The notes below the pieces were generated by a model that was given only the letters and a program-made list of their open reading frames with translations, was not told where the DNA came from and searched no databases. This document shows, in pieces, positions 49,700 to 63,955 of a DNA stretch of 64,000 nt (positions within the stretch are counted from its first letter, which is position 1; each line of letters starts with the position of its first letter). The stretch lies in NCBI GenBank assembly GCA_012813795.1, contig GCA_012813795.1_4087.1; one strand, 5' to 3'. The stretch comes from a phage. A program made the position numbers and the translations under genes.

Positions 49700-49800
49700 A
49701 GATACACTTATGCACCCGGTGGGCTAGTGAGCTATCTCTCAATGAATATATAATAGCAAAATGGCTGACCGAAGTCAACCACTTTTTTCATTTATTTTTT
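49700..49800. repeat. conserved inter-gene boundary element, copy 4
   Basis: Same unit; the hairpin here shows compensatory substitutions (TGGCTGAC..GTCAACCA) relative to copies 1-3, consistent with selection for the structure. Confidence 0.6.
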
Positions 49801-49926: not shown

Positions 49927-50016
49927 TTAAATCACCATAAAGAATAGATATGTTACTAACAATACCGCGATCAATGCACCGCCCAGGGCCGAACTGTAAT
50001 AAGCTAATGATTTCAT
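49927..50016 (-). CDS. small hydrophobic peptide (29 aa), not in ORF track
   Basis: Hand-translated MKSLAYYSSALGGALIAVLLVTYLFFMVI, a single predicted TM helix; ATGA overlap with the upstream gene. Confidence 0.35.
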   Translation of the reverse strand: MKSLAYYSSALGGALIAVLLVTYLFFMVI

Positions 50017-50165
50017 TTTTTAGCCTGAAAATAATGTTTAATTTGAGCGGCGGTCAGTGCACAATTACGCAGGAAGTTTTCTGTATAACTGCGGCGAGTA
50101 CTGAAAGAAAATTGACCTTTGCCGTTGCCGATAGTAACATCAAACCGAGCATTATATTGTTTCAT
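50013..50165 (-). CDS. small protein (50 aa), not in ORF track
   Basis: Hand-translated MKQYNARFDVTIGNGKGQFSFSTRRSYTENFLRNCALTAAQIKHYFQAKK; AAGGAGA SD; promoter module upstream. Confidence 0.45.
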   Translation of the reverse strand: MKQYNARFDVTIGNGKGQFSFSTRRSYTENFLRNCALTAAQIKHYFQAKK

Positions 50166-50247
50166 TTTGATTCTCCTTGTATCAGGGGAGAACCATTTCC
50201 CCCCTCTATGTAAAACATTATACAGTACTAAAAACTAATTGCAAGTA

Positions 50248-50394
50248 TTATTTTTTAGATTTACGCAAACTTTCTACCATCTCAGGAGTAAGGCCCGGCG
50301 GGTAGGAAACCACTTCATCAACGAAACGTAAAGGGAATACCCCAGCGAAAGGTGAACATGCTTTCTTGGTATTACTCTTTTTTGATGCTTTCAT
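50248..50394 (-). CDS. small protein (48 aa), not in ORF track
   Basis: Hand-translated codon by codon: MKASKKSNTKKACSPFAGVFPLRFVDEVVSYPPGLTPEMVESLRKSKK; AAGGA SD. Confidence 0.45.
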   Translation of the reverse strand: MKASKKSNTKKACSPFAGVFPLRFVDEVVSYPPGLTPEMVESLRKSKK

Positions 50395-50476
50395 TTCATA
50401 TTCCTTAATTAGTGGGGAGAACCATTTCTCCCCTCTATGTAAAACATTATACAGTACTGAAAACTAATTGCAAGTA

Positions 50477-50719
50477 TTATTTTAAACTTTGTGCGACTAA
50501 TTTCGCACGGTCAATCATATACTGCCATTTTTGGATCTCTTCTGGTAGAAAACGATATTCACCAATAACAATAGTGATACACTTTTCAGCCTGGTCAATG
50601 TATGTAGTATCAATCTCGACTTGAACGGGTACACGTTCGCCGTATTCAGTTCCTGGGATAATACAATCATTATCATAAGTAACAGTAGTTGCAGTGTCTT
50701 TGATTAAAATGGTTTCCAT
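50477..50719 (-). CDS. hypothetical protein
   Basis: Track ORF trimmed to METILIKDTA... Confidence 0.6.
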   Translation of the reverse strand: METILIKDTATTVTYDNDCIIPGTEYGERVPVQVEIDTTYIDQAEKCITIVIGEYRFLPEEIQKWQYMIDRAKLVAQSLK

Positions 50720-50771
50720 TATACTTTCCTCGTTAGGTGTAAGGGGAAAAAGTTTCCCCTCTATGTAAAAC

Positions 50772-50799
50772 ATTATACAGTACTGAAAACTAATTGCAA
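50772..50799 (-). promoter_or_regulatory. sigma70-like early promoter (module copy)
   Basis: Minus strand TTGCAA-N16-TATAAT, then GGGGAAAC..TTTCCCC hairpin, then GAGGAA SD. Confidence 0.6.
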
Positions 50800-50999
50800 G
50801 TATTATTTTCTAAAAAATGATTGTATGCTGCATCAACCACTCTTTCGATAACATACGCCATCGGCACGTATCCAACTACATGACTACAATAGAAAGGACT
50901 ACGATTAGAATCATCGTATGCAAATACTTTTTCAGGATCTGCATCAATCACATACATATTAACTTTGAGTATGTCAATCTTATCCTGTACAGTAAGCAT
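50790..50999 (-). CDS. hypothetical protein
   Basis: 69-aa minus ORF. Confidence 0.55.
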   Translation of the reverse strand: MLTVQDKIDILKVNMYVIDADPEKVFAYDDSNRSPFYCSHVVGYVPMAYVIERVVDAAYNHFLENNTCN

Positions 51000-51004
51000 A
51001 TTAA

Positions 51005-51259
51005 TTAACCTTTTAAGTACTGGCTCAAATAGTCTTTTTGTTCTTCGGTGATTGGCGGCATCTTCCCTAGTACTGGATTGATGATATAATCCCCTGTAAC
51101 GTCATGATCCGCGTTCTCAGTACTAGCAACCGGACGAATACGGGCCATCGCCTGGGCTTGTTCTACGCTGTATTGTTCGTATAGTCTGCATTCTTCCGGT
51201 GTAGGCATTACATCGCTACGCTGCATAGGTTTAATGATGCTTTCTTGATTAACGTTCAT
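51005..51259 (-). CDS. hypothetical protein
   Basis: 84-aa minus ORF. Confidence 0.55.
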   Translation of the reverse strand: MNVNQESIIKPMQRSDVMPTPEECRLYEQYSVEQAQAMARIRPVASTENADHDVTGDYIINPVLGKMPPITEEQKDYLSQYLKG

Positions 51260-51310
51260 GGTATTATCCTCAATATTAGCGGCCTAAATCGACCGCTAAC
51301 GATGTTTTGA

Positions 51311-51580
51311 TTAATAGGTGTATGGTTGACGCTCAAACAATGATTGCACGTTGTACGCCCCGCTAATGGGCTTCGCTGGCAAATCAATTTTATATTGCTC
51401 ACGCTTAAAGATGATAAAACGACAATTGTTCTTAATATCAAAATTGATTGAACGTTCCAGGAGTTTTCCATCGTGCACAAATACAAGATAACCGCTTGCT
51501 ACTTGTTTTGTAGTACTGGTTGCAACCATCGACCGACGAACATGCGTACCTGCATCGATTAAAGTACTGATATTTTTCAT
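51311..51580 (-). CDS. hypothetical protein
   Basis: 89 aa; preferred over overlapping 51256..51486 because of AAGAGGA SD. Confidence 0.55.
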   Translation of the reverse strand: MKNISTLIDAGTHVRRSMVATSTTKQVASGYLVFVHDGKLLERSINFDIKNNCRFIIFKREQYKIDLPAKPISGAYNVQSLFERQPYTY

Positions 51581-51660
51581 TTTACTATCCTCTTAATTTG
51601 ATTTAATTTCTTTCCCCTATGCAGACACTATATCAAAGTATCTGCATAAAGTAAAGCTAA

Positions 51661-51984
51661 TTAAAGATCTTTTTTGCGTTTAACATTCTGTACAGTACAA
51701 TGCAACGGGATAGACAAATCATTACACAAACGATAGAGGGAGGTTTCAACAGTATCAAGCCCGTCTACTGATTCCTTTAAGAGATCTAACGCCGTTTGTT
51801 GATATGCATCTTCATAGCCATAAGTAAATGATTCAACCGCCAGATCATTCACACCGTTATCCAGTTCAACGCTTACATGACAAGAATGATAAGTATTGCC
51901 ATATGAATCAGTCCAACGTTTACCGTCAACATTGATTGCACGGATTGCAGCCAGGGAAACGGTGTTAATGATAGTTTTAGCCAT
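51661..51984 (-). CDS. hypothetical protein (paralog of 46057..46380)
   Basis: 107 aa. Confidence 0.6.
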   Translation of the reverse strand: MAKTIINTVSLAAIRAINVDGKRWTDSYGNTYHSCHVSVELDNGVNDLAVESFTYGYEDAYQQTALDLLKESVDGLDTVETSLYRLCNDLSIPLHCTVQNVKRKKDL

Positions 51985-52075
51985 TTTAGTATTCCTTAAA
52001 TTAATATGCGTTGTCTTGATAAAATCTATTATGCCAGTACTATCAAACTATGTCAATAGTACTGTGATAATATTT

Positions 52076-52288
52076 TTACTTACTTTCTTTAGCTGCTTTA
52101 TGTGCTTCCACTGCCATAACCACATCAGCACGAACAAAGTTAGCAACCGTATCAGTGTAATATTTGATTGCATCGTCAACTTCTGCGAACGTCCGATACA
52201 TACCACACCAAGATACTTTATAACCTGCTTTCACTTGTTCCAGCTTAACCAGTGATTTGTTTACTTTGATTTTAGTAATGATAGCCAT
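52076..52288 (-). CDS. hypothetical protein
   Basis: 70-aa minus ORF. Confidence 0.55.
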   Translation of the reverse strand: MAIITKIKVNKSLVKLEQVKAGYKVSWCGMYRTFAEVDDAIKYYTDTVANFVRADVVMAVEAHKAAKESK

Positions 52289-52370
52289 TTTTTGTTTCCT
52301 CTTAGTTGTCTTGATAAAATCTATTATGCCAGTACTATCAAACTATGTCAATAGTACTGTGATAATATTT

Positions 52371-52514
52371 TTACTTACTTTTTGCTTTCTTTGATGCTTC
52401 AACCTGGTCAGCCCACTCTTTACCCCATACTTGAGCATTATAGTGATACTGACAAAGAGCAACGCCCCGCTTTAAACCAGTAATAGATTTTTTACCACAT
52501 TGACAAGTTTTCAT
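52371..52514 (-). CDS. small Cys-containing protein (47 aa), not in ORF track
   Basis: Hand-translated MKTCQCGKKSITGLKRGVALCQYHYNAQVWGKEWADQVEASKKAKSK; GAGGAA SD; promoter module upstream. Confidence 0.45.
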   Translation of the reverse strand: MKTCQCGKKSITGLKRGVALCQYHYNAQVWGKEWADQVEASKKAKSK

Positions 52515-52600
52515 TTTTCGTTTCCTCTTAGTGGGGAGAATCATTTCTCCCCTTGATGTAATGTATTATACTTTATCCGATTTACTTTGCAAGTACTTTT

Positions 52601-52828
52601 TTAATTTAATTCATCTAGGCAAAGGATACGATCTACACCTAAATCAGTTAAGCTAATAGACGGCACTTGATAGGTTTCAATGTATGCTACATCGGCCCAC
52701 TGACCGAACTCACCTGCCGCCCAGTTATACATTGCAAAATGTAATTCCGCACCTTTCTTATTAGTAATTACAGCAACAGTAGAAGAATTGCCAGTAGTAC
52801 CAGTTACGCGAGTGATTACGATAGCCAT
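52601..52828 (-). CDS. hypothetical protein
   Basis: 75-aa minus ORF. Confidence 0.55.
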   Translation of the reverse strand: MAIVITRVTGTTGNSSTVAVITNKKGAELHFAMYNWAAGEFGQWADVAYIETYQVPSISLTDLGVDRILCLDELN

Positions 52829-52898
52829 TGTTTTGATTCCTATTCAGTAGTTGATGTATGTATTATGTCAGTACTTAAAACTATTGTCAAACTATTTT

Positions 52899-53051
52899 TT
52901 AAAGTTTATCAATGATTGATGCCGTTTCATTGATAGTCTTGCCGTGTTTTGCACACGCGATAACTGCTTTAAATTCCTTTGATGACCAATCTTTTTTCCT
53001 GCATACTGACATTACTTGTAAAGTGAAACAATCCAGTTCATAAGTATTCAT
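52899..53051 (-). CDS. small protein (50 aa), not in ORF track
   Basis: Hand-translated MNTYELDCFTLQVMSVCRKKDWSSKEFKAVIACAKHGKTINETASIIDKL; GAGGA SD; promoter TTGCAC-N16-TATAAT. Confidence 0.45.
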   Translation of the reverse strand: MNTYELDCFTLQVMSVCRKKDWSSKEFKAVIACAKHGKTINETASIIDKL

Positions 53052-53220
53052 CTTTATATCCTCAGTTAGTTAAGGTGTCTCGCCTTGATGTAATTAATTA
53101 TACGCTAATCTCTTAATCGTGCAAGTACTTTTTATTAGTTTTTATAAAATACTTTTAACGCTCTCAATCGCATTCTAACGGCCTTAACGCCACCAGCTAG
53201 GGCGATGTATCACATAAACG

Positions 53221-53254
53221 AAAAAAGCCCGTAGAATTGATTCTACGAGCTTTT
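53221..53254. terminator. bidirectional rho-independent terminator
   Basis: GCCCGTAGA..TCTACGAGC hairpin flanked by A6 and T4; 3' of the lipoprotein gene. Confidence 0.55.
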
Positions 53255-53270
53255 AAGCTGGTTGATTGTA

Positions 53271-53678
53271 TTACTTACAGTTATAGACTATGATCCCGAC
53301 CGTCCCGTGTCCAATGACTTCAACGTTATACACTAACTTGCCATTTACACGCTCGCGAGCATAAAAAACGCGTTCATTCTCGGCATCGCGATACGCTGAT
53401 AAAAATTTACGGTTTGGATACGCTTTCAGTACTGGCGACTCAGTGAAAAAGTCACCGATAACTACACTAAAATGATCCCCGTGTTCTGTTAATGGTATAC
53501 TACGCGGATCAGTAAATTGCGGACGGTTATCAATAACAAAATATGGATTCACTGTACAAATCTTATCGCCCATCTCTGAATAAGTTGGCTTAGGATCATT
53601 AGCCTGGATGGATGATTTAGGGGCCGTACATCCCACCGCCAACAGTACACAACTAATAACCGCAATTTTTTTAAACAT
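53271..53678 (-). CDS. lipoprotein (candidate superinfection-exclusion or receptor-blocking factor)
   Basis: 135 aa; signal peptide MFKKIAVISCVLLAVG|C with lipobox LLAVGC. Confidence 0.65.
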   Translation of the reverse strand: MFKKIAVISCVLLAVGCTAPKSSIQANDPKPTYSEMGDKICTVNPYFVIDNRPQFTDPRSIPLTEHGDHFSVVIGDFFTESPVLKAYPNRKFLSAYRDAENERVFYARERVNGKLVYNVEVIGHGTVGIIVYNCK

Positions 53679-53742
53679 AATGTTTACTCCTATAAAATTG
53701 TATTTAAAAGAAAATCCCCTAGCAATCAGGGGATTCGTTTGA

Positions 53743-54225
53743 TTATGCTACATCTTTACGGTGAGCTTCGATCCATTCCTCGCGAGTCATACCGCTGGCG
53801 TTAATCGCGTCCAGTACTACGGCAATGCAGTTACCGCGTACTGGTACAGTGTATTCCTCGCCATTATCCAGTACTACCGTGACACGTTCTTGAATCCATT
53901 TTTTAGCTTTTACTTCTGGCTTGTCTTCCCCGTATTTCGCTGCCAGGGCTTTACGGGCCATTTCGGTAACTACTTCCAGATCAAGCCCAGCGACGGCGGC
54001 GTTAATATCTTCAATCGTTTTCTGCAATTCTGCTTCGCGTGCTGCCTTCTCTGCTTCAATTGCCGCCGCTTTATTAGCTTGCAGTTCTTTCGCTTCGCTG
54101 TACGCAATGTTAAAATTGTTGCGTACTGCTTTCATGGTATCGCTATCCAGTTCAGCCAGGATCTCTGCCGCTACATTAGTTTCATTTGCTACCAGTGCTT
54201 TGATGAATGATTTTACGTTAGCCAT
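53743..54225 (-). CDS. hypothetical Ala/Glu-rich coiled-coil protein
   Basis: Track ORF begins at a TTG; ATG at 54225 (MANVKSFIKAL...) has GAGGAA SD; central AAAIEAEKAAREAELQK heptad-like region. Confidence 0.6.
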   Translation of the reverse strand: MANVKSFIKALVANETNVAAEILAELDSDTMKAVRNNFNIAYSEAKELQANKAAAIEAEKAAREAELQKTIEDINAAVAGLDLEVVTEMARKALAAKYGEDKPEVKAKKWIQERVTVVLDNGEEYTVPVRGNCIAVVLDAINASGMTREEWIEAHRKDVA

Positions 54226-54424
54226 TATGTAATTCCTCAATTAAAGTTTAGTTTACGTTAGATAGTGTATCAAAGTTTTCTCGACGTGTCCAGTTTTTCG
54301 TTCGACTTACTGGCGGTCTACTTAGTGCTCCCCGTCTTGATGTAATACATTCTACGCCTTTTTGTGGTAATGTCAACTACTTTTTTAAAACTATTTTCAA
54401 AGTATTCCAGTACTACGATACTAC

Positions 54425-54451
54425 AAAAACAAAAAAGCCCACCAGGTGGGC
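54425..54451 (-). terminator. rho-independent terminator
   Basis: GCCCACC-a-GGTGGGC hairpin followed on the minus strand by UUUUUUGUUUUUG; 3' of 54459..54689. Confidence 0.65.
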
Positions 54452-54458
54452 TATGTAC

Positions 54459-54689
54459 TTAATCAGTAAGTAAAATATTAAACACTTTGCCATTTAACGT
54501 TATTGGTGTACTGCTACCAGGCTTGAGATCAGTTAGTACACCTGCAATAGCTTTTTCATTGGCGACCTTTCCAGTGTCCAATAGTACTACAGTACTGATA
54601 AGATTAACGCTCGTTTCAATATCATAATGCACGGCGTTAAGGAGTTGTGTAGTACTTCCAGCGTTAAGTAAAACTATTCGCTTAGTCAT
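54459..54689 (-). CDS. hypothetical protein
   Basis: 76-aa minus ORF. Confidence 0.55.
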   Translation of the reverse strand: MTKRIVLLNAGSTTQLLNAVHYDIETSVNLISTVVLLDTGKVANEKAIAGVLTDLKPGSSTPITLNGKVFNILLTD

Positions 54690-54767
54690 GGTATTACCCC
54701 TTATACCAGGGGAACCGTTCCCCCTATGTAAAACATTATACGCGTTTAAAAACTATTGTATAGTACT

Positions 54768-55004
54768 TTATGATTTTTTATAAAACATTTCAGCAGTGAT
54801 ATTTTTACCCGTTGGTTGTACTTTATCCAGAATTTTTTGATGTCCAGGGCGACCAAATGAATAAGATCCGTAAACCGTAAACCAGTAGTTACCCTCAGTG
54901 TTTACATGTACAGCACAATAGGGAACGCCCCGCGATTCATCACTAGTAAAGTGTGCTACCGTTCCCGTTACATTCGAAGACGTTGATTTGATTTGTTCGA
55001 CCAT
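54768..55004 (-). CDS. hypothetical protein (paralog of 56154..56387)
   Basis: 78 aa; shares GVPYCAVHVNT.G.YW.TVYG.YSF.RP.H.KIL with 56154..56387. Confidence 0.6.
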   Translation of the reverse strand: MVEQIKSTSSNVTGTVAHFTSDESRGVPYCAVHVNTEGNYWFTVYGSYSFGRPGHQKILDKVQPTGKNITAEMFYKKS

Positions 55005-55112
55005 TTTCTTATTCCTTAGTTACCAGGGGAACCGCTCCCCCTATGCAAAACATTATACGCGTTTAAAAACTAATAGCAAGTATTTTAATAAAAAGTATTT
55101 GGAAAATAATTG

Positions 55113-55255
55113 TTGACAAGTGCATCCAGTACTGGCATAATTACTACATCAAGACGAAACAGTCACTAACCCACCGGGTGCCGAGATCCGTCTATTAAAT
55201 GATTCAGTACTGAAAAAGTAACGGGGAGTTATTATCTCCCCGCGTTGTTATTTTG
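55113..55255 (+). ncRNA. candidate plus-strand small RNA (box-containing)
   Basis: Only plus-strand unit with promoter-like TTGACA-N17-CATAAT (55113-55141); no ORF; contains conserved CCCACCGGGTGC box; ends at GGGGAG..CTCCCC hairpin (55223-55241). Confidence 0.35.
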
Positions 55256-55469
55256 TAAGGTATAAACAGAAGTCACCTTTATTTGCTACGCCGCCAGTGT
55301 AACGCGATGAATAGTTAGTAACGTCCTGGACTTCTGCTATTACCAGTGTATCATCATTCAATTCGTCGCAGAAGCAAACGGCTGGATCTTTTACGCCGAT
55401 ATTGTCGGCATGTTCCCGCATAGATTTAACCAGTGCTTCAAGTTGGGAAAGGGTAGTAATGTTAGCCAT
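55248..55469 (-). CDS. hypothetical protein
   Basis: Track ORF trimmed to MANITTLSQLE... Confidence 0.55.
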   Translation of the reverse strand: MANITTLSQLEALVKSMREHADNIGVKDPAVCFCDELNDDTLVIAEVQDVTNYSSRYTGGVANKGDFCLYLTK

Positions 55470-55555
55470 TGTATTTTCCTCATTACCAGGGAGAACCATT
55501 TCTCCCCTTGATGTAAACTATTATACAGTACTAAAAACTAATTGCAAGTACTTTT

Positions 55556-55759
55556 TTAATTTAATTGCTTTAACACATAATCATAAACACCACGCACATC
55601 ATTGATCATCGCCTCACGGTTAGCAGGTAACGCAGAAGGATCGCCACTATCCCAGGCATTGATAAAACTCCCCAAATCATGATAGATTTTATTTTGTAAG
55701 CCGATCAACTGTAATTCTTTTTCTTCAAGCTCTTTGATACGGTCGATTAAATCACTCAT
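55556..55759 (-). CDS. hypothetical protein
   Basis: 67 aa; SD GAGGATTATCTA shared with the upstream gene. Confidence 0.55.
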   Translation of the reverse strand: MSDLIDRIKELEEKELQLIGLQNKIYHDLGSFINAWDSGDPSALPANREAMINDVRGVYDYVLKQLN

Positions 55760-55776
55760 TAGATAATCCTCAGTAC

Positions 55777-56064
55777 TTAATTGTAAGATCCGCAGCGGTT
55801 GCAGTAGTTCCCGTCTTCCTCGTCATCGTCAACGAATTGACCGACGAAATGATCTACTTTCTCTTTGAGGCTTTTATAATCCTCTTCTACTTCCTTTAAA
55901 CGTTTCTGGTAGTATTCCAGGGCTTGCACATACGCCGCCTCAGCAGTTTTCTCCCGCATAGCTAAATTCATGCCGCGTGTTTCATCATAAAGCCAATAAC
56001 CATCGGTGCACTGGCTGATAGAAAATGATTTGGTTAACACTTTATAGTCAATTACTTTGCTCAT
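55777..56064 (-). CDS. hypothetical protein with C-terminal Cys pair
   Basis: 95 aa; acidic stretch then ...YCNRCGSYN. Confidence 0.55.
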   Translation of the reverse strand: MSKVIDYKVLTKSFSISQCTDGYWLYDETRGMNLAMREKTAEAAYVQALEYYQKRLKEVEEDYKSLKEKVDHFVGQFVDDDEEDGNYCNRCGSYN

Positions 56065-56153
56065 TAGATAATCCTCTGTAAATGCAGGGGAACCATTTCC
56101 CCCGCCTCGATATAAAGTATTATACTCGTTTAAACTTAGTATGCAAGTACTTT

Positions 56154-56387
56154 TTAGTGCTTAGTAAAATATTTTTCTGCGGTGATATCCTTTCCGGTAG
56201 GCTTCACTACTTCCAGGATCTTACTATGTGCCGGACGAGCAAACGAATACCCCCCGTATACAGTTAACCAATAGTCACCGTCAGTGTTTACGTGTACAGC
56301 ACAATAGGGTACACCTTTATCAGTATCAGCGATGGAATGTACTTTCGTTCCGGTCCGGCTTGTAGTCGTTTGAATTTGTTCGATCAT
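56154..56387 (-). CDS. hypothetical protein (paralog of 54768..55004)
   Basis: 77-aa minus ORF. Confidence 0.6.
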   Translation of the reverse strand: MIEQIQTTTSRTGTKVHSIADTDKGVPYCAVHVNTDGDYWLTVYGGYSFARPAHSKILEVVKPTGKDITAEKYFTKH

Positions 56388-56444
56388 GATGCTTACTCCT
56401 GGTTATAGGCGGGAACCACTCCCGCCATTGATTCAGTACTGAAA

Positions 56445-56675
56445 TTACATTCCAACCATTGCCGCACGAATTGCAGTAGTGCTATACTTAAAGCCGTCCG
56501 GCGTTGACTGACCGCGTAAAGTATCCATCATTAGCCGGGCGGCGGCATCGCGGTTATTTGTCTCATTGATGCAATCCAGGGCGTGACGATACAACCAGCT
56601 ATCATTGTTAATCCAAAGGCTTACATTCCAATGAGTTTTGTTTTTGTGACCTAAGAACATTTTTGATTTAGCCAT
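56445..56675 (-). CDS. hypothetical protein (paralog of 57230..57469)
   Basis: 76 aa; shares GHKNKT.WNVSLWINND..LYR and PDGFKYSTTAIRAAMVGM with 57230..57469. Confidence 0.6.
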   Translation of the reverse strand: MAKSKMFLGHKNKTHWNVSLWINNDSWLYRHALDCINETNNRDAAARLMMDTLRGQSTPDGFKYSTTAIRAAMVGM

Positions 56676-56880
56676 TTTGAAAATCCTCGTTTGATTTGAG
56701 CGGGGAACTATTCCCCGTCCTGATGTAAAACATTATACGCCTTTAAACATAGTTTGCAAGTACTTTTTAAAAATAGTTTTAATCACTTTCCTATAGATAC
56801 ACTCCCGCACCCTATGGGCTATCGCCTTGTATCCGGCTTGTAAGTATTATCTCACTAAGCCGGATAATGGTCAAGTACTT

Positions 56881-57147
56881 TTATTCAAGTACTGCAATCT
56901 TTTTAGTACGGTACACAGTAACACGGTTGCCCTTGCGGTCGTGCTTTATTTCTACCACTCGACGCGATACACTATCAGGACTTTTTAACGCCGATAACCA
57001 GTACTGTAACGATCTGGCGGTGCTACGCTTTACAATGACCCAACGTTCACCCCTGGCTGATTGTACGCCCATATCTTTAAACGTTGCACCGTCAACCTTT
57101 GCCGCTTGCCGAGCTTGTTCACGCGTTTCAAAGTATATAATATTCAT
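56881..57147 (-). CDS. hypothetical protein (paralog of 45566..45970)
   Basis: Track ORF trimmed to MNIIYFETREQARQ... Confidence 0.6.
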   Translation of the reverse strand: MNIIYFETREQARQAAKVDGATFKDMGVQSARGERWVIVKRSTARSLQYWLSALKSPDSVSRRVVEIKHDRKGNRVTVYRTKKIAVLE

Positions 57148-57229
57148 GCTGATACCCCATCGTTGATGTATGAATAAAATCCTATTATAAAGTACTATCA
57201 CCGTGCAATAGTACTTTAAATCTATTCTC

Positions 57230-57469
57230 TTACATTCCAACCATCGCGGCACGGATCGCCGTAGTGCTATACTTGAATCCGTCTGGAGTTTTATCTTGTC
57301 CAGTTTGCTCTAAAAATAGCATCATATGACGGGCCGCATCATTACGATTAGTATTAGCGTCGATAAATTCTTTCGCCAGACGATACAATGACTCATCGTT
57401 ATTAATCCAAAGGCTTACATTCCACTGAGTTTTGTTTTTGTGACCGTTGAAAGTTTTAGTAGTAGCCAT
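57230..57469 (-). CDS. hypothetical protein (paralog of 56445..56675)
   Basis: 79-aa minus ORF. Confidence 0.6.
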   Translation of the reverse strand: MATTKTFNGHKNKTQWNVSLWINNDESLYRLAKEFIDANTNRNDAARHMMLFLEQTGQDKTPDGFKYSTTAIRAAMVGM

Positions 57470-57554
57470 AATTAAAAATCCTCTTAATTATAGTGGGGAA
57501 CTATTCCCCACCTGATAGAAAGTATTATACGCCTTTAAACTTAGTTTGCAAGTA

Positions 57555-57788
57555 CTATTTTTTCAGTACTGGTAAACCTTTGATCTCACCTGGCTGTACT
57601 TCCTCAAAGGTCGCCGCCATCATACGGCTATCATCTTCCTTGCACTCTTCCATTGCATCACAAAAATGATTAATAACGTCCGGTGCAACGTCAACCACAT
57701 CAAACAAGCCAACCTCAGTGCAACGGCTTAAAGCGTTTAACAGGTCAGTCAGTGCAACGGATTGAGAAACAGTTAAGATAGTACTCAT
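57555..57788 (-). CDS. hypothetical protein
   Basis: 77-aa minus ORF. Confidence 0.55.
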   Translation of the reverse strand: MSTILTVSQSVALTDLLNALSRCTEVGLFDVVDVAPDVINHFCDAMEECKEDDSRMMAATFEEVQPGEIKGLPVLKK

Positions 57789-57882
57789 AAAATTAATCTC
57801 TTAATTATAGTGGGGAACTATTCCCCACCTGATAGAAAGTATTATACGCCTTTAAACTTAGTATGCAAGTACTTTTTAAAAC

Positions 57883-58245
57883 TTATTCGTAAATCTTGCC
57901 ACTGTCAGCCCATACCAGGAAACGCGGCATATTATCCCATGCATCTTGTTTCAAGTTTAAGCCGTGCAATACTTCTGTACTTTCCATCCCTGGTACTGGT
58001 TTACTATACACCGCAAACATTTCGCCCATGTACTGATACGCCATCGTTAAATCACTGGCGATCATCTTATGGATCATCGCATCAAGCATCACAGTAGCGG
58101 CGTATTGTTCACGCTTAAGCGGCAACATTGCAATCAATTCCCGATAAGCTGAAATATGAATCTTTACAGTCTCAGCCGGAAGATCTTTCATCTCTTCGCG
58201 AAAGTTAACCAGGTTAGCAATGATTTTAGTGATTTGAGTCGCCAT
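57883..58245 (-). CDS. hypothetical protein
   Basis: 120-aa minus ORF; last gene before the non-coding hub. Confidence 0.6.
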   Translation of the reverse strand: MATQITKIIANLVNFREEMKDLPAETVKIHISAYRELIAMLPLKREQYAATVMLDAMIHKMIASDLTMAYQYMGEMFAVYSKPVPGMESTEVLHGLNLKQDAWDNMPRFLVWADSGKIYE

Positions 58246-58564
58246 CGTTTTAATTCCTATTAAAGTGAGTTAGGAGCGTTTCCCCCGTCTCGATGTAAAA
58301 CATTATACGCCGTTAAACATAGTATGCAAATACTTTCTGCAAATACTTTTAAAATAGTTTTCTTTCTATATAGGAGTACTATCATTCAGTACTGAATCAA
58401 TCCAGGGAGTACAATTATTCAGTACTATACCCTCAAAACGTCCTCAGTCGCTTTCTAACGCATTAATACACCTAAGCTATACATTTGCACCACTCCCAAC
58501 AATCCAGGGCTTTACGGGCCGTTTAAACGCGTTAAATTATTTTCAATTATTTTGTTTTTAGCTA

Positions 58565-58592
58565 TTGACTCAGTACAGAAAAAGCGTATAAT
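58565..58592 (+). promoter_or_regulatory. plus-strand sigma70-like promoter in the non-coding hub
   Basis: TTGACT-N16-TATAAT; downstream non-coding sequence carries the conserved CCCCAGGGGGTGC box. Confidence 0.45.
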
Positions 58593-58779
58593 TACTACAT
58601 AGACGCGAGAAAGCGGATACCCCAGGGGGTGCGGAACTACGCCCAAAATTCAGTAAATTTAAAAAGGATACACTCCCGCACCCTAGCAGGTCAAAGCACT
58701 TTCTCAGTACTGAATCATAGTACCATAGTACGCCCCATGATAGCAAGCAAATTAATTAAAACTTTTTGCATCCAGGGTA

Positions 58780-58807
58780 TTGCTTTATTTTTCCAGTACT
58801 GTATAAT
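58780..58807 (+). promoter_or_regulatory. plus-strand sigma70-like promoter in the non-coding hub
   Basis: TTGCTT-N16-TATAAT; downstream non-coding sequence carries the CCCAACGGGTGC box. Confidence 0.4.
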
Positions 58808-58904
58808 AGTTCCATCAAGTCGAGAAAGACTCAAGCCCAACGGGTGCATAGTTACGCCCAAAATTCAGTACTAGATTATTTTTTAAAAATATTCATCCAG
58901 GCGG

Positions 58905-58933
58905 TTGACATTGCCCCCAGTTTATTAGATAAT
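58905..58933 (+). promoter_or_regulatory. plus-strand sigma70-like promoter in the non-coding hub
   Basis: TTGACA-N17-GATAAT, followed by GGGGAAACCATCCCC hairpin. Confidence 0.45.
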
Positions 58934-59030
58934 GATTCCAGATTCAGAAAAATCTAACTCCAGATACTGCGGGGAAACCATCCCCACGCGGTAGGGGAAC
59001 TAATGGAAAAAACAGTATAAAATTTTGATT

Positions 59031-59170
59031 TAGCCGTCTATACATCCAGACGTTTAGCCGTCCAAACGTCTAGCGGTACAGCCATCTAGCAGTACAGCCA
59101 TCTAGCCACCTAGAGGGATAGCCATCTTTACTTCCAGACTTCTGGAGGGCTAGACATCTCTACGTCCAAA
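59031..59170. repeat. iteron-like cluster (candidate origin, packaging or partition site)
   Basis: Reiterated ~11-bp units TAGCCGTCTA / TAGCCGTCCA / CAGCCATCTAGC x2 / TAGCCACCTAG / TAGCCATCTT / GGCTAGACATCTC plus palindrome CCAGACTTCTGG. Confidence 0.55.
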
Positions 59171-60000
59171 ATCCACACAGGGTTACTACGCCCAAAATCC
59201 GTCAGTACTATACCATAGATCTATCTTTGAGAAGGGAGTATTCAGTACTGCCATCATAGTCCTCACTATGTTACCCTAGGAGGATGAAGACTATCATGTA
59301 GTACTGAATACTTTTAAGGGGAATATCATCACATTGCGTGATGCATTATATATTAGATTAATATCAGTACTGCTACCATTCTGTTAATAACAGTACTGTT
59401 TATATTACGAAAAAAAGAGGTTGTCAAAGATGAACCACTACATAGGAGGATTCAATCTCTTCTGTACTGTCTCACGACAGGGGGAATAAGGCTCTGAATT
59501 GTTTGCGGCAATCCATCACTCTATGTAGAACATTATACAGTACTGAATCATAATGTCAATAACTTTCTTACATTTGCAGTACTAAAATCGTATCTTCTGT
59601 ATCTCTTCAAAACTCATTATATCCCAATAATCCTATATGTCCCAACGTGAATTCCAACTTTCGAAGATCCAACTTTTATTTCATAGGTACTCCAAAATTT
59701 TTACGATCCAGATTTACGATGGAGTACTAACCAACTTTTTGCTGGAGCCTCAAGGGGTATTCGGAATTTTCCCCAATGGGTAATCGGGATTTTTGACGAA
59801 GGGTAAATTGAACTTTTTTGAATAGGTGATTGGGAGTTTTCAGTACTGGTCATTCCGTGATTACTTTTGATTACATTTGACATGTTATGCAAAGTTGCAG
59901 TACGGTAAAAATATGTAAATTTTGGGCGACTTCATTTGCCTACTTAGTGGGATATCAGTACTGAATCATATAGGGGTAATCCTTCAGTACTGAATACTTT

Positions 60001-60120
60001 CCTGTACTCTAGTACACTCTATTACACTCTAGTACTCAATACTAATCACTACTAACCACTACAATGATTATAAATGATTACTTAAATGTTTATATATGAT
60101 TACTTATGACTACCTATGAT
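60001..60120. repeat. short direct-repeat cluster
   Basis: TACACTCT x2, TAATCACTAC/TAACCACTAC, ATGATTAC x4. Confidence 0.5.
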
Positions 60121-60163
60121 TACGGGGTTTAGCCTGGGGAGAATCCTAGTGATCGCATTTGTC

Positions 60164-60228
60164 CAGGCTGAATTTTAACAATTCAGACGTCGAGCAGGCT
60201 GAATTTTAACATATGCAACATATGTTAA
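60164..60228. repeat. 17-bp direct repeat plus 10-bp inverted repeat
   Basis: CAGGCTGAATTTTAACA x2 (60164-60180, 60194-60210) and TTAACATATG-caa-CATATGTTAA (60206-60228). Confidence 0.6.
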
Positions 60229-60270
60229 AGCCTGTATAATGCTTACACTACGGAGCTTCCCCTAGCTATA

Positions 60271-60513
60271 TTACTTCCTATATATAAGCATTAAGATATA
60301 GTAGTACTGATTGTACTGATTGTACTGATTGTACTGATTGTACTGATTGTACTGATTGTACTGTACATTCTCTTTAACAGGACAAGGGTCTATTGCTATA
60401 TTAGTACATCTATACAATTCATATCTATTAAAGGGTAGTTCTATGAGAGATTTAATCCATACTTGTTCATTCTCTTTGAGTTTACTTATATAGAAGTCTT
60501 TATGATTATCCAT
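60271..60513 (-). CDS. FamC paralog with internal (YNQ)n repeat
   Basis: 80 aa; MDNHKDFYISKL...; C-terminal YNQYNQYNQYNQYNQYNQYYYILMLIYRK encoded by the 9-bp tandem repeat. Confidence 0.6.
   Translation of the reverse strand: MDNHKDFYISKLKENEQVWIKSLIELPFNRYELYRCTNIAIDPCPVKENVQYNQYNQYNQYNQYNQYNQYYYILMLIYRK
60301..60363. repeat. 9-bp tandem repeat (x7) inside a coding region
   Basis: TGTACTGAT x7 on the plus strand, i.e. (CAG TAC AAT)n = (QYN)n on the coding strand. Confidence 0.8.
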
Positions 60514-60706
60514 AGATATATATTAACAACATTAGGTTAGAGTATAGTGCTTTAGTGTCATCTTGTTCTAGAGCTTCAATTGAGTTCGTTGTAGCTTTCC
60601 TAAAGCACATTTTTGCGTATGCACTTTTTGGATTAACGGGGGCGGTGGCTTCGCACCAGATTCTTTCGGTGGTTGATAGTTTACTCATATAGTATTCTTT
60701 ATACAT
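60506..60706 (-). CDS. FamC paralog
   Basis: 66 aa; MYKEYYMSKL...LMLLIYIYG. Confidence 0.6.
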   Translation of the reverse strand: MYKEYYMSKLSTTERIWCEATAPVNPKSAYAKMCFRKATTNSIEALEQDDTKALYSNLMLLIYIYG

Positions 60707-60707
60707 A

Positions 60708-60896
60708 TTAGTACCTGAATATAAGTAGTATAATGTTATAGTACTGATTAGTACTGCTAAGATTCTCTATAGAGCGAATAACAGTTAGGGAGTAGTTATA
60801 CTTGGAGTATGCATTATCCAGTGGGACTTTATATTGAGCACTAAGTGATAGTTCTGTAGGGAGAGTACTTAAGTAGAATTCTTTATGGTTTTGCAT
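60708..60896 (-). CDS. FamC paralog
   Basis: 62 aa; MQNHKEFYLSTL...ILLIFRY. Confidence 0.6.
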   Translation of the reverse strand: MQNHKEFYLSTLPTELSLSAQYKVPLDNAYSKYNYSLTVIRSIENLSSTNQYYNIILLIFRY

Positions 60897-60897
60897 A

Positions 60898-61086
60898 TTA
60901 GTACCTGAATGTTAGCATTGTTATGTAGTACAGCATATATGGATTGTCATCGTATATTAGGGTGTACTTAGTACATTGTTGGAACATTATTTTTGCATGA
61001 TCTTTTATGCCAATAGGTTTTGTTGGCACATGGTGTTGGAGATGCATTGGGAGATGATCTTTATAAAATTCTTTATAGTTGTTCAT
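60898..61086 (-). CDS. FamC paralog
   Basis: 62 aa; MNNYKEFYKDHL...ITMLTFRY. Confidence 0.6.
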   Translation of the reverse strand: MNNYKEFYKDHLPMHLQHHVPTKPIGIKDHAKIMFQQCTKYTLIYDDNPYMLYYITMLTFRY

Positions 61087-61087
61087 A

Positions 61088-61273
61088 TTAGTACTTATAT
61101 ATTAGTAAAAGGATGTGATACAGTACTCGATTATAGTCGTCAATATCTATCGAGGATTTAGTGCACTTAACGAAGTAGTCTTTTTCGTAGTCTTTTTCTA
61201 TACCCAATGGTTCTGTTGGTACAAGGTATTGTAGATGCATTGGGAGTTTATCTATGTAGTATTCTTTATACAT
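61088..61273 (-). CDS. FamC paralog
   Basis: 61 aa; MYKEYYIDKL...LLLIYKY. Confidence 0.6.
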   Translation of the reverse strand: MYKEYYIDKLPMHLQYLVPTEPLGIEKDYEKDYFVKCTKSSIDIDDYNRVLYHILLLIYKY

Positions 61274-61288
61274 ATTAGTCCTTAGTCC

Positions 61289-61489
61289 TTAGTACTGGAA
61301 CGCGAGATACAGGGTGTGGTACAGTTGTACTTGAGAATTGTTTTCATTAACTTCTTCATTAAGTACTTGTTCAGTACAATTGCGGAAGTAATCAGCTTCA
61401 TATATACAGTTAATGTCGCGAGGTTCATCATCTAATAGATTGCCTTGTAGAAACTTTGGTAGTTCTTTAATATAGAATTCTTTATACAT
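61289..61489 (-). CDS. FamC paralog
   Basis: 66 aa; MYKEFYIKEL...LYLAFQY. Confidence 0.6.
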   Translation of the reverse strand: MYKEFYIKELPKFLQGNLLDDEPRDINCIYEADYFRNCTEQVLNEEVNENNSQVQLYHTLYLAFQY

Positions 61490-61497
61490 ATTAGTCC

Positions 61498-61692
61498 TTA
61501 GTACACGAACGTGAGGTACAGGGTGTGGTATAGTGCTCGATGATAGCTATCATAATCTTGTATACATGCTTTAGTGCACATAATGAATCTTGCTTTATTA
61601 ATCTCTGTGTTTAAGTTTCTAGGATGTTCTAGGTGATCGATTATGTACTGTGGGAAAAATTTTAGGTATAGTTCTTTGTGTTCATTTTTCAT
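61498..61692 (-). CDS. FamC paralog
   Basis: 64 aa; MKNEHKELYLKF...LYLTFVY. Confidence 0.6.
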   Translation of the reverse strand: MKNEHKELYLKFFPQYIIDHLEHPRNLNTEINKARFIMCTKACIQDYDSYHRALYHTLYLTFVY

Positions 61693-61693
61693 A

Positions 61694-61876
61694 TTAGTAC
61701 CTGTATATAAGTGTTAGTACATTGTACAGGTTATAGATATCATCTTCATTTATTGCAGATTCTGTTTGATATCGGTAGAATATAGTTTGGCTCTTATCTT
61801 TGAAATCTACAGGTTCGCGGGGAATAAGCTTTTGTAGATCAATACTAAGAAAACTTATGTAGTATTCTTTATACAT
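61694..61876 (-). CDS. FamC paralog
   Basis: Track ORF 61694..61939 trimmed to MYKEYYISFL...; ends ...LTLIYRY. Confidence 0.55.
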   Translation of the reverse strand: MYKEYYISFLSIDLQKLIPREPVDFKDKSQTIFYRYQTESAINEDDIYNLYNVLTLIYRY

Positions 61877-62540
61877 AGTTTGTAATATACGTAATGAGGT
61901 GATGAATTTTCTTATTAGTACTGATAAGTTCATGTACATGTTTTGTTAGATTGTACGCGTTTTTGTACAGTACAGGGTTATCGATTACAGTACTGTACAT
62001 GAATAGTTCTTCTTCTGATAATTCTTTGCCTTGTAGTTCTTTGAGGAATTCTACAATTGATTTAGTTTCTTCTGTACGTTGTGCTTGCCAGAAGTGCATA
62101 TTCTCGTGTATTTCTTCTGCACCCATACTGTATATGCCACCCATTTGGAATTGTGCTGTATTGACATCGTGGGAGGTGTTACAATTCCCGAAGAAGTATG
62201 TATTCCCGAAGTATAGCATTAAAGTGCACGGGGTATTATCCAACTGCATATGGATGATGAAGGATGCGTTCTTTAGTACCTTCATGCTCGTATTAGTACT
62301 CAATACTTTTAAATCAGTATTATAGATATTCATATAATGAACAGCTATATTATTTTTCTTCATGTACAATTCAAGGTTCTTTGATACGTTAACTCCATTT
62401 GTACTGGTTTTTTTACTTTTCTTTAGGTTCTTTAGTACATTAGGATGATAAGTATATGCATTAGTGGTAGATTCAGCCTGGATTGATTGCAGGTACTTAA
62501 AGTGCTGTAGGTATCGTTTGCTTTGTGGATTAAGTTTCAT
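61869..62540 (-). CDS. FamA-like protein embedded in the FamC array
   Basis: 223 aa; variant motif EEELFMYSTVID. Confidence 0.6.
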   Translation of the reverse strand: MKLNPQSKRYLQHFKYLQSIQAESTTNAYTYHPNVLKNLKKSKKTSTNGVNVSKNLELYMKKNNIAVHYMNIYNTDLKVLSTNTSMKVLKNASFIIHMQLDNTPCTLMLYFGNTYFFGNCNTSHDVNTAQFQMGGIYSMGAEEIHENMHFWQAQRTEETKSIVEFLKELQGKELSEEELFMYSTVIDNPVLYKNAYNLTKHVHELISTNKKIHHLITYITNYV

Positions 62541-62551
62541 TTGGTTTCCTT

Positions 62552-62590
62552 AAATTGCTTATACTGCTTATACTGTTTATACTGTTACAA
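62552..62590. repeat. 9-bp tandem repeat (x3-4), intergenic
   Basis: TGCTTATAC TGCTTATAC TGTTTATAC TGTT just upstream of the 61869..62540 start. Confidence 0.6.
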
Positions 62591-62756
62591 GCGAGATTAT
62601 TTCTCTGTATGGGTTATTTTTTGTCAGGACGTGATGAATGCAGCTATTGAGATTAATAGTTTTAGTACTTTTTGTTCCCAGGTTGTAGTACTTCACGAAG
62701 GTGTCGTACATGAAACGATCCTTAGTACTGAGATTATCGGTGTAGTACTCTAGCAT
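62577..62756 (-). CDS. small Tyr-rich protein (59 aa), not in ORF track
   Basis: Hand-translated codon by codon: MLEYYTDNLSTKDRFMYDTFVKYYNLGTKSTKTINLNSCIHHVLTKNNPYREIISLVTV; AAGGAAT SD. Confidence 0.5.
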   Translation of the reverse strand: MLEYYTDNLSTKDRFMYDTFVKYYNLGTKSTKTINLNSCIHHVLTKNNPYREIISLVTV

Positions 62757-62766
62757 AGTTTATTCC

Positions 62767-62946
62767 TTATATAGAGATAAGTTTCAGTACTTCATTATAT
62801 GTGAACATTTCGTCCTGTGCCAATTTAGTACAATTCAGGAGTAATTTTCTTTGTTTTCTTTGCGAACTACAATGATAGCTCATTGAGAAGTAATTGAAGC
62901 CGTATCTATCTTCTGGGTAAATTACGCTTAGGTAGTATTCTAGCAT
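62767..62946 (-). CDS. small Tyr-rich protein (59 aa), not in ORF track; paralog of 62577..62756
   Basis: Hand-translated MLEYYLSVIYPEDRYGFNYFSMSYHC...; same MLEYY N-terminus; frame checked only at start and stop. Confidence 0.4.
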   Translation of the reverse strand: MLEYYLSVIYPEDRYGFNYFSMSYHCSSQRKQRKLLLNCTKLAQDEMFTYNEVLKLISI

Positions 62947-62954
62947 TGTATTCT

Positions 62955-63140
62955 CTACATTTCAATAAGTTTAAGTACTGCTCTGTACGTGTACTTAGTT
63001 GTTAGTGTTTCTTTTATAGCAGTACAGAAGTAATGTTGTTTGTCTCTAATACTGCCGCGTTTGTAGTACCATACATGGGAGTTGTGGCTGTACTTGTCTC
63101 TGTCGGATAGTTTTTGGTAATAGTAGCTTTTATGATTCAT
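62955..63140 (-). CDS. FamC paralog
   Basis: 61 aa; MNHKSYYYQKL...AVLKLIEM. Confidence 0.6.
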   Translation of the reverse strand: MNHKSYYYQKLSDRDKYSHNSHVWYYKRGSIRDKQHYFCTAIKETLTTKYTYRAVLKLIEM

Positions 63141-63349
63141 TGTAATGTAATTAGCCTTACTATATTAAAGTACTCGGTCCCTGTTGCACCTTGTAGAATA
63201 TTACGCACGACATGTTTGTGGTGCTGGATGATTGCTGAAGGTGCGGTTCTTTTAAGTTTTTTAAAAGTACTGAATTCTTGTTTAAGGATGAACTGTATAT
63301 CTTTAGGGAGAATATCTATGTAGTACTGATGAATGTTCATAGTTTTCAT
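63137..63349 (-). CDS. FamC paralog
   Basis: 70 aa; MKTMNIHQYYIDIL...IVRLITLQ. Confidence 0.6.
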   Translation of the reverse strand: MKTMNIHQYYIDILPKDIQFILKQEFSTFKKLKRTAPSAIIQHHKHVVRNILQGATGTEYFNIVRLITLQ

Positions 63350-63359
63350 ATAGCACCTT

Positions 63360-63551
63360 TTAGAACTTAAAGATGAGGTACATGATAGATAGGTACTTAG
63401 TTTCAGTAAACTGTTGTTCTATTGCATAACGTGTCTCCAACCTGAAATCGTAATTATAAAAGGGACTATTCTTTCTCATAGGTTCTTGAGGGAATGAGTC
63501 CCTGTATTGTTCGTGTAGTTTACTACAGTAGAAATCTTTATGATTATTCAT
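63360..63551 (-). CDS. FamC paralog
   Basis: 63 aa; MNNHKDFYCSKL...IMYLIFKF. Confidence 0.6.
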   Translation of the reverse strand: MNNHKDFYCSKLHEQYRDSFPQEPMRKNSPFYNYDFRLETRYAIEQQFTETKYLSIMYLIFKF

Positions 63552-63753
63552 AGAAGTATATTAGTCCGATTAAACTTGAGTACTGCATATTTTTGTTATT
63601 GCATTCAATAGCTTCTAGAGTACTACGTATACAATTATTAAAGCAATTCCTGGTGTTGGGTGTGTCTATACTTACAGGTGGTACACTCCTTAGAAACATT
63701 TGTTCTTCGTTGCTGAGGTATTTGGTGTAGAATTCTTTATGTTCAGTTTTCAT
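63544..63753 (-). CDS. FamC paralog
   Basis: 69 aa; MKTEHKEFYTKYL...LIGLIYFYE. Confidence 0.6.
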   Translation of the reverse strand: MKTEHKEFYTKYLSNEEQMFLRSVPPVSIDTPNTRNCFNNCIRSTLEAIECNNKNMQYSSLIGLIYFYE

Positions 63754-63754
63754 A

Positions 63755-63955
63755 TTAGTACTCCAATAGTAGTGTTAAGATGAAATAGTACTGCATACTT
63801 TCGTTACCTTCTATTGCATTCCAGATGAGGTTATTCCTGTTTGAGTTCAGGAGTCCTGGTATGCGTTTAGCATTTTTCAGTACTGTTTTTTGGTTCTTCA
63901 TTGCATCTTGTAGGCCAGGGTGCAATGCATTGATGTAGTACGGGTTAATGTTCAT
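63755..63955 (-). CDS. FamC paralog
   Basis: 66 aa; MNINPYYINAL...FILTLLLEY. Confidence 0.6.
   Translation of the reverse strand: MNINPYYINALHPGLQDAMKNQKTVLKNAKRIPGLLNSNRNNLIWNAIEGNESMQYYFILTLLLEY

Follow-up and report, generated by a model that had tools for sequence, protein, structure and literature searches.

Variable-number tandem repeats (VNTRs) in coding regions, also called in-frame minisatellites, originate by slipped-strand mispairing. They are used for MLVA typing and are known from size-variable bacterial proteins. Bacterial contingency loci are related: Moxon and colleagues are said to have described them as simple-sequence repeats that drive phase variation. Campylobacter phages have hypermutable poly-G tracts, which are homopolymer on/off switches in receptor-binding (host-recognition) genes. 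Another kind of repeated sequence is HIP1 (GCGATCGC), the highly iterated palindrome of cyanobacteria. In coliphages, the contingency loci of T2 agt and T4 rIIA are homopolymers of at least 6 nt that undergo reversible +/-1 frameshifts, and reversion of these tracts was measured at about 1000-fold above point mutation (Gomez, Barrick and Waters, bioRxiv 10.1101/2025.10.21.683753).

Here we describe a 9-bp tandem repeat that encodes Gln-Tyr-Asn (QYN) within a small accessory gene of a jumbo coliphage. We consider it likely that the repeat is a recent expansion from one unit to six, private to a single lineage, and that replication slippage or template misalignment is its most likely cause. We analyzed a stretch of 64,000 nucleotides of phage DNA (the window), which has about 150 small ORFs, nearly all of them on the minus strand; we found no tRNA genes in the window. 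The region matches 36 phage records, from 32 Escherichia phages and 4 Salmonella phages. The matched records whose taxonomy we looked up are classified as Asteriusvirus or are unclassified below Caudoviricetes (121Q, PBECO4, A4, G17, and others). The best match, to phage A4, has 92.6% identity over 56% of a 3.2-kb query, and no record covers 80% or more of the query. Judging by sequence, the window is from an Asteriusvirus-type (121Q/PBECO4-like) jumbo coliphage.

Tandem Repeats Finder reports the tract at 60304..60363 with a period of 9, 6.7 copies, and 100% matches, and its score of 120 tops all 52 rows for the 64-kb window. Direct reading agrees with this and gives ATAGTA-(GTACTGATT)x6-GTACTG-TACATT. 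The best phase (GTACTGATT) yields six perfect units and a partial unit of 6 nt. In phase TGTACTGAT, which is the phase of the earlier note, there are five perfect units, which start at 60312, 60321, 60330, 60339, and 60348. That note had reported seven perfect units at 60301–60363 inside the ORF. The repeat is indeed perfect and is inside the ORF, but the number of units is five, or six and a partial unit, depending on the phase, and the tract starts 3 nt further along, at 60304. Chance is not expected to produce such a tract: the longest perfect period-9 tract is 60 nt, versus a mean of 17.3 nt and a maximum of 21 nt across 200 shuffles. For the other periods from 4 to 15, perfect tracts in the window reach at most 26 nt.

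On the coding strand the unit is CAGTACAAT, or Gln-Tyr-Asn, and the six full units are followed by the CAGTAC of a terminal QYY. The tract is in frame in the minus-strand ORF 60271..60513, as had been claimed, and encodes (QYN)6-QYY; the 9-bp unit leaves the ORF intact in every allele that we describe below. The 80-aa protein reads ...PCPVKENV-(QYN)6-QYYYILMLIYRK, and its residues 51–71, a 21-residue segment, are exclusively Gln, Tyr, and Asn. The coordinates of this and the other features are collected in the table.

Table. Features of the window, with strand and basis. "Private" duplications are present in the window but not in phage A4; their position is that of the insertion.
Feature	Position	Strand	Basis or comment
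Perfect 9-bp tandem repeat	60304..60363	-	Tandem Repeats Finder, unit positions, shuffle control, translation
Repeat-bearing gene, 80 aa, phrog_11711	60271..60513	-	PHROG match, orthologue clusters, pN/pS
About 14 further small paralogues (59–69 aa), tightly packed tandem array	60506..63955	-	ORF list, PHROG, alignment A1
Unrelated 223-aa ORF that breaks up the array	61869-62540		phrog_29152
Conserved, highly structured non-coding element just past the stop codon	60125..60275	-	RNA fold
Four abutting 10-bp tandem-repeat arrays	60006..60123	.	Tandem Repeats Finder; between the structured element and the terminal-repeat boundary
31-bp tandem duplication	60164..60194	.	Window-private, within the structured element
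7-bp tandem repeat, GGACTAA x2.7 on the coding strand	61275..61293	-	Tandem Repeats Finder
Second 9-bp tandem repeat	62556..62584	-	Tandem Repeats Finder, 3.2 copies, 95% match
Private tandem duplication, 10 bp	60006		In the 10-bp arrays
Private tandem duplication, 10 bp	60047		In the 10-bp arrays
Private tandem duplication, 31 bp	60164		In the structured element
Private tandem duplication, 45 bp	60308		Five QYN units
Private tandem duplication, 7 bp	61287		Shine-Dalgarno-like spacer
Private tandem duplication, 18 bp	62563		Two units of the second repeat
Inferred direct terminal repeat of about 20.5 kb (early region)	39450..59945	.	Homology to fEgEco12
Near-consensus sigma-70 promoters with CAGTACTG spacer	43045-43090, 43540-43585, 50430-50475, 50755-50800, 59532-59559	-	

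The protein belongs to phrog_11711, a family of hypothetical proteins that comprises small paralogues of the Asteriusvirus type. It matches the profile over its full length (positions 1–62 of 62, E = 2e-12), with the repeat as an insertion. The family's conserved motifs, K-[DE]-[FY]-Y near the N terminus and Y..L.LIYR near the C terminus, are both present in the 80-aa protein (alignment A1). Seven of the eight neighboring small ORFs that we tested are also members, and ORF 62577-62756 has no match in PHROG. Pfam has no match. A search with the family profile found only 33 representatives among 1.84 billion proteins, all of 59–69 aa except for P0044 (337 aa), which is a weak match over a short stretch. 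So, the family is narrow, and the 80-aa protein is longer than any typical member. Its orthologues, which form 19 protein clusters at 90% identity, have 61–70 aa; the one exception, the UE-S1 annotation with 98 aa, owes its extra length to an upstream N-terminal extension. When compared to divergent orthologues, the gene has pN/pS of 0.2–0.5, which implies that the gene truly codes for protein and is moderately constrained.

The gene is the most downstream of about 15 head-to-tail genes (59–80 aa) that extend from 60271 to 63955. Consecutive genes of this array are joined as ...AGG TAC TAA T ATG. (At the junctions within 60706-61700, the next start is one base past the stop, ..AGGTACTAATATG.) The C-terminal Arg-Tyr-stop codons of one gene would thus double as the Shine-Dalgarno-like site of the next. 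This layout suggests translational coupling, and the C-terminal [YF]-[RK]-Y may owe some of its conservation to the doubled role. Short in-frame tandem duplications other than QYN are also found in this protein family: EKDYEKDY at 61175-61198 (12 bp x2; old and fixed, with EKNYEKDY in 121Q), KEYKEYKEY at the N terminus of the TH47 orthologue, and LIPLIP and QRKQRK. None of these other duplications has more than three copies.

We read the repeat site in 14 relatives from GenBank (as DNA), in the 19 protein clusters, in two metagenome contigs, and in two Logan contigs. The usual allele is one unit and a half-copy, CAGTAyAAT-CAGTAC-TAC, which encodes Q[YH]N-QYY. A4, 121Q, G17, ph0011, EC.P1, WPEC3, J, UE-S1, fEgEco12, TH47, CRJP21, and SD-2_S15 have one unit; overall, this is the state of 12 of the 14 DNA-level relatives, 17 of the 19 protein clusters, and both metagenome contigs. 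The closest metagenomic relative has one unit as well. The remaining GenBank records probably do too, as their match spans equal those of the records that we read. Two units are found in slurp01 (CAGTATAAT x2) and in Logan contig L028 (GAGTACCAT+CAGTACAAT), and because these sequences differ, the two duplications are independent. Only the window phage has six units. Its closest relative, Logan contig L027, has a single unit; across 1163 aligned bases, the two differ by only 44 substitutions, but there are 141 gap positions. Relative to the ancestral state, the insertions are exactly 9 bp (slurp01 and L028) or 45 bp (the window), and the flanks align base for base. In all, 3 of about 35 sampled lineages depart from one unit, and the expectation that repeat number would vary between isolates is borne out by alleles of 1, 2, and 6 units.

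We also searched more broadly for longer alleles. Degenerate searches with QYNQYNQYYYI found no alleles of two or more units in JGI metagenomes, GTDB genomes, or IMG/VR; positive controls with the one-unit allele were recovered. A search for the exact three-unit sequence matched two unrelated contigs, and the search of IMG/VR for more alleles returned 121Q itself and no other.

The locus looks as expected if a VNTR arose by slipped-strand mispairing: the units are identical, the alleles differ by integral steps, and the relatives contain a proto-repeat. The ancestral sequence has two CAGTAC hexamers 9 bp apart, and misalignment of one hexamer with the other would duplicate one 9-bp unit. Such a duplication would have occurred on at least three separate occasions. 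Two or more perfect units would make further slippage easier, and the tract of the window phage would then have grown to six. The proto-repeat, the whole-unit alleles, and the independent duplications all fit slipped-strand misalignment. Because the tract is 100% identical, the expansion should be recent, and a unit of three codons leaves the frame unchanged. We infer that slippage was the mechanism and that the expansion was nearly neutral. There were no three- to five-unit intermediates among the sampled alleles, so the jump from one unit to six could instead reflect a single multi-unit event or selection for length. We also considered that a hairpin in the single-stranded repeat might have promoted the expansion, but its potential to fold is not beyond that of shuffled sequences (z = -1.4), and we rejected hairpin-driven slippage.

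The earlier note proposed that the repeat is a contingency locus. As in such loci, a simple-sequence repeat lies within a gene (6.7 units in 60271-60513, in a perfect 60-bp stretch of coding sequence) and the number of repeats differs between isolates, with three lineages off one unit. Phage contingency loci have been shown experimentally in T2 and T4 (bioRxiv 10.1101/2025.10.21.683753). Also, this family of paralogues, of which we found so few representatives, is fast-evolving and lineage-restricted, which is the kind of family that is often involved in host takeover. Under bet-hedging, the tract would be kept for the rapid and reversible changes in (QYN)n length that it allows. These would generate variants of an accessory protein confronted with a changeable host factor, for instance a defense system, and each burst would yield mixed progeny. 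However, we think that true contingency is unlikely. With a 9-bp unit, every allele stays in frame and all of the ORFs are intact, so there is no frameshift, no on/off switch, and no modulation of expression by repeat number. The phage contingency loci that have been described so far are frameshifting homopolymer tracts (bioRxiv 10.1101/2025.10.21.683753). Furthermore, relatives have not preserved a repeat tract. A single unit is not slippery, and about 30 lineages have no more than that, so mutability is not a conserved, selected property of this locus. And the five duplications nearby, which include non-coding ones, point to mutation pressure rather than selection on the protein. We conclude that the term contingency locus probably does not apply here.

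How would the expansion affect the protein? For the one-unit orthologue P0001, AlphaFold2 predicts helices at residues 3-10, 14-22, 30-41, and 50-64, with a mean pLDDT of 84.7. For the 80-aa protein, it also predicts four helices: the first three are as in P0001, and these are followed by a longer loop and by helix 4 at 57-79. The mean pLDDT of this model is 76.6, and the two 10-residue blocks of residues 41-60 average just 65 and 53. In these models, helix 4 grows from 15 residues (one unit) to 23 residues (six units). The QYN unit is at the predicted N-terminal start of this last helix, after a segment whose length varies among the paralogues (alignment A1). The 15 extra residues would be added at that point, after the length-variable loop, and we expect that the protein probably tolerates them.

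Alternatively, the longer segment might have been selected for a new function: as a longer or stickier linker, as an extension of the helix, or for self-association or aggregation. Q/N-rich prion-like domains self-associate or aggregate, and the QYN segment, with nothing but Gln, Tyr, and Asn at residues 51-71, may resemble them. The longer C-terminal helix in the model and an intact ORF in a gene under purifying selection are consistent with this. But the expansion is known from one genome only, the models have low confidence within the repeat (the blocks just mentioned), and perfect identity of the units at the DNA level leaves no time for selection on the sequence. We consider a gain of function to be quite improbable.

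The expansion of the QYN tract is not the only recent duplication in this part of the genome. We aligned the window to 50 kb of A4, with which it is colinear from 14.5 to 64 kb (91-98% identity), and listed insertions with a minimum length of 5 bp. All six of the tandem duplications that are private to the window (see the table) fall in 60.0-62.6 kb, and we saw no clear tandem-duplication indels in the other ~45 kb. The 10-bp arrays have two extra units relative to A4 (insertions at 60006 and 60047). The 31-bp duplication leaves a 16-nt direct repeat, CAGGCTGAATTTTAAC, at 60164 and 60195, and is absent from A4, slurp01, 121Q, and the P0001 and P0002 contigs. The GGACTAA repeat duplicates a Shine-Dalgarno-like spacer between two genes of the array, and part of it (insertions at 61280 and 61287) is private to the window. 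That the QYN expansion is clustered with five other duplications, several of them non-coding, suggests regional mutation pressure and not selection on the protein. We propose that the expansion is part of a local hot spot, which would comprise the 2.6 kb that adjoin the junction where unique sequence meets the direct terminal repeat. Identity to A4 is also lower near this junction (91%, versus 97-98% at 14-35 kb), and faster evolution there could account for part of the clustering of indels.

One member of the cluster is another 9-bp repeat. The unit of this repeat, read on the coding strand, is CAGTATAAG/A and shares 7 of its 9 positions with CAGTACAAT, the QYN unit. The first unit comprises the last two codons and the stop codon of ORF 62577-62756; the rest lies in the spacer before the 223-aa ORF. 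Every unit contains an in-frame TAA. The private 18-bp insertion raises the number of copies from one in A4 to three in the window; the repeat is absent from 121Q, slurp01, and J. This repeat was already noted as three copies at 62552-62590, in the intergenic region adjacent to the gene. It does exist, but at 62556..62584, with 3.2 copies that match at 95%, so it is less exact than that. Nor is it adjacent: it is 2.2 kb and seven genes away from the QYN gene. And it is only partly intergenic, as it overlaps the end of an ORF.

The other duplications also bear on whether the six units are an artefact. Assemblers that use a small k can miscount short tandem repeats, and an error in assembly or sequencing might have inflated the copy number. 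But the 60-bp tract is shorter than an ordinary read, its flanks are clean, and this genome has two more expanded repeats close by, so we view an artefact as very unlikely.

The location of the hot spot can be described in terms of the genome's ends. Phages of the genus Asteriusvirus have direct terminal repeats of ~20-21 kb, and for fEgEco12, the termini of its 20,993-bp repeat were found experimentally by PhageTerm and restriction digests (PMC13070987). By homology, position 1 of fEgEco12 maps to ~59,945 in the window and position ~20,993 maps to ~39,450, so the window contains a single copy of the terminal repeat, with a unique end on either side. (The layout of the window, which is unique start, terminal repeat, and unique end, is as in a collapsed or concatemeric assembly. 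The G+C content is 0.36-0.41 in the terminal repeat versus 0.31-0.36 to its left.) By the same mapping, the QYN gene comes last in the unique region, with ~326 bp between its stop codon and the boundary and ~359 bp between the repeat and the boundary.

Just past the stop codon is the structured element, at 60125..60275. It folds at -53 kcal/mol (z = -5.3), and nine relatives share its 3' stem (AGCCTGG/CCAGGCT), in which one change is compensatory. The inner hairpin has at least three versions, each of which is self-complementary (such as CATATG..CATATG or CAATT..AATTG). In Rfam, no family matches 60125-60275, and the one match reported (E = 0.76) is well below the gathering score. The element contains no canonical intrinsic terminator or T-run. 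Although it is strongly structured, we set aside RNA gene and terminator as explanations for it, since it fits no Rfam family and no canonical terminator. On the other side of the boundary, at the end of the terminal repeat, ~1.4 kb (58260-59700) has neither a long ORF nor a match in Rfam. Just inside the boundary, at 59069-59127, are 16/24-bp repeats. The copy number of the arrays at the boundary (60006-60123 and 59069-59127) differs among the window, A4, and the Logan contigs. These arrays are candidates for end recognition or processing sequences.

The QYN unit contains GTACTG, which is a half-site of the palindrome CAGTACTG. This palindrome is present 66 times in the window, or ~70-fold more than the 0.91 +/- 0.96 that is expected from dinucleotide-preserving shuffles. 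AGTACT is present 258 times (21.5 expected) and GTACTG 176 times (11.4 expected). The genome has 13-15 times more CAGTAC and GTACTG than expected, so that pairs of hexamers close enough together to seed slippage are common. Plausibly, tandem duplications are seeded by such hexamers, which the frequent motif would provide. Some CAGTACTG sites are intergenic and others are within coding sequence, where they occupy several reading frames (for instance at 543, 1011, 59956, 59985, 61988, and 63878). Codon pairs are also biased toward the motif: Val-Leu as GTA-CTG occurs 46 times versus 8.5 expected, Ser-Thr as AGT-ACT 80 times versus 19.9, and Gln-Tyr as CAG-TAC 47 times versus 13.2. The dipeptides VL, ST, and QY are enriched 1.6-2.1 times.

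The palindrome is over-represented in other jumbo phages as well. It has 24 sites in a central region of 121Q (L029; 0.5 expected) and 21 sites in Klebsiella phage RaK2 (L030; 0.5 expected), which is from another genus. Early promoters of the terminal repeat have the form TTGACA-N8-CAGTACTG-TATAAT, so that the palindrome fills the spacer. One of these (59559..59532) matches the consensus at 12 of 12 positions and is the first promoter inside the terminal repeat. The highest density of sites in the window is in the boundary region, with ten sites at 58.4-60.0 kb. AGTACT is nearly absent from 28000-32000 and 36000-40000, with 0 and 2 sites per 4 kb, versus ~10-29 elsewhere; these islands may be recently acquired DNA or genes that are exempt from maintenance of the motif. 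We found no mention of CAGTACTG or AGTACT in the searchable literature on jumbo phages or RaK2, and no mention of the QYN repeat there either; both searches included the Sharanji, fEgEco12, and CBB papers.

Given the palindrome, we also considered that the tract might act as DNA: its seven GTACTG half-sites, 9 bp apart, might be a binding array near the boundary for a putative factor that recognizes CAGTACTG. CAGTACTG is in great excess over expectation, with a codon-pair bias at the DNA level, the motif is densest around the boundary, and the tract is just 359 bp from it. But the tract has half-sites only (the first unit matches 7 of the 8 positions and the others are TGTACTGA), a spacing of 9 bp is not a helical repeat, and all of the relatives package their DNA without the array. 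This makes a binding array highly improbable. More generally, since every relative is without the repeat, we rejected the idea that it is conserved or functional DNA.

Slippage at the proto-repeat, which we prefer, might be part of a broader phenomenon. Tentatively, we suggest that in jumbo phages like RaK2 and 121Q, selection at the DNA level for CAGTACTG fills the genome with CAGTAC half-sites close to one another, which seed 9-10-bp duplications, in combination with a hot spot in the 2-3 kb beside the boundary that is perhaps linked to the copying or cutting of the terminal repeat when concatemers are processed. This combination is possible but doubtful. If it is correct, then the locus would be hypermutable now and the protein's length would be heterogeneous from virion to virion. 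From the sequence, the 60-bp tract may be hypermutable at present, and the duplications may be linked to processing of the terminal repeat.

By itself, the QYN expansion matters little, as it is a length polymorphism in a hypothetical phage protein of 65-80 aa. The tract could be used as a strain marker or as an amplicon for slippage rates in a jumbo phage. The value of the finding is that it points to the cluster of duplications at the junction of the unique region and the terminal repeat and to the excess of CAGTACTG. Should CAGTACTG turn out to have a function, whether in packaging, modification, self-marking, or transcription, this would outweigh the repeat as a result.

How does the locus compare with the known systems? 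Like HIP1, CAGTACTG is an 8-bp palindrome that is tens-fold over-represented, is dispersed through coding DNA in several frames, and shapes codon pairs. Unlike HIP1, it has a different sequence, it belongs to a clade of jumbo phages (Asteriusvirus and Alcyoneusvirus), and it is also found in the spacers of early sigma-70-type promoters. Like the poly-G tracts of Campylobacter phages, the QYN repeat is a repeat-driven source of diversity in a phage, but the QYN gene appears to be neither structural nor receptor-binding. As with T2 agt and T4 rIIA, we have a coliphage gene with a slippage-prone repeat, and the idea of heterogeneous progeny from a single burst is shared; the QYN unit differs from those homopolymers in being 9 nt and in frame. 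The QYN repeat also resembles bacterial contingency loci in that it is simple and intragenic and polymerase slippage is presumed, but it lacks a frameshift or promoter-spacing switch and a tract that is conserved in the lineage.

The best match is to coding VNTRs. As in those, the QYN tract is head-to-tail and perfect, its unit is a multiple of three, the alleles change by whole units, and the frame is kept. Furthermore, the tract grew from a pre-existing short direct repeat and is polymorphic between isolates. It differs from those VNTRs in that it is in a lytic jumbo phage, in a hypothetical protein of ~65 aa that looks cytoplasmic and helical, and in that just 3 of ~35 sampled lineages deviate from one unit. 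Overall, we would class the locus as an ordinary coding VNTR, which is new only as an instance.
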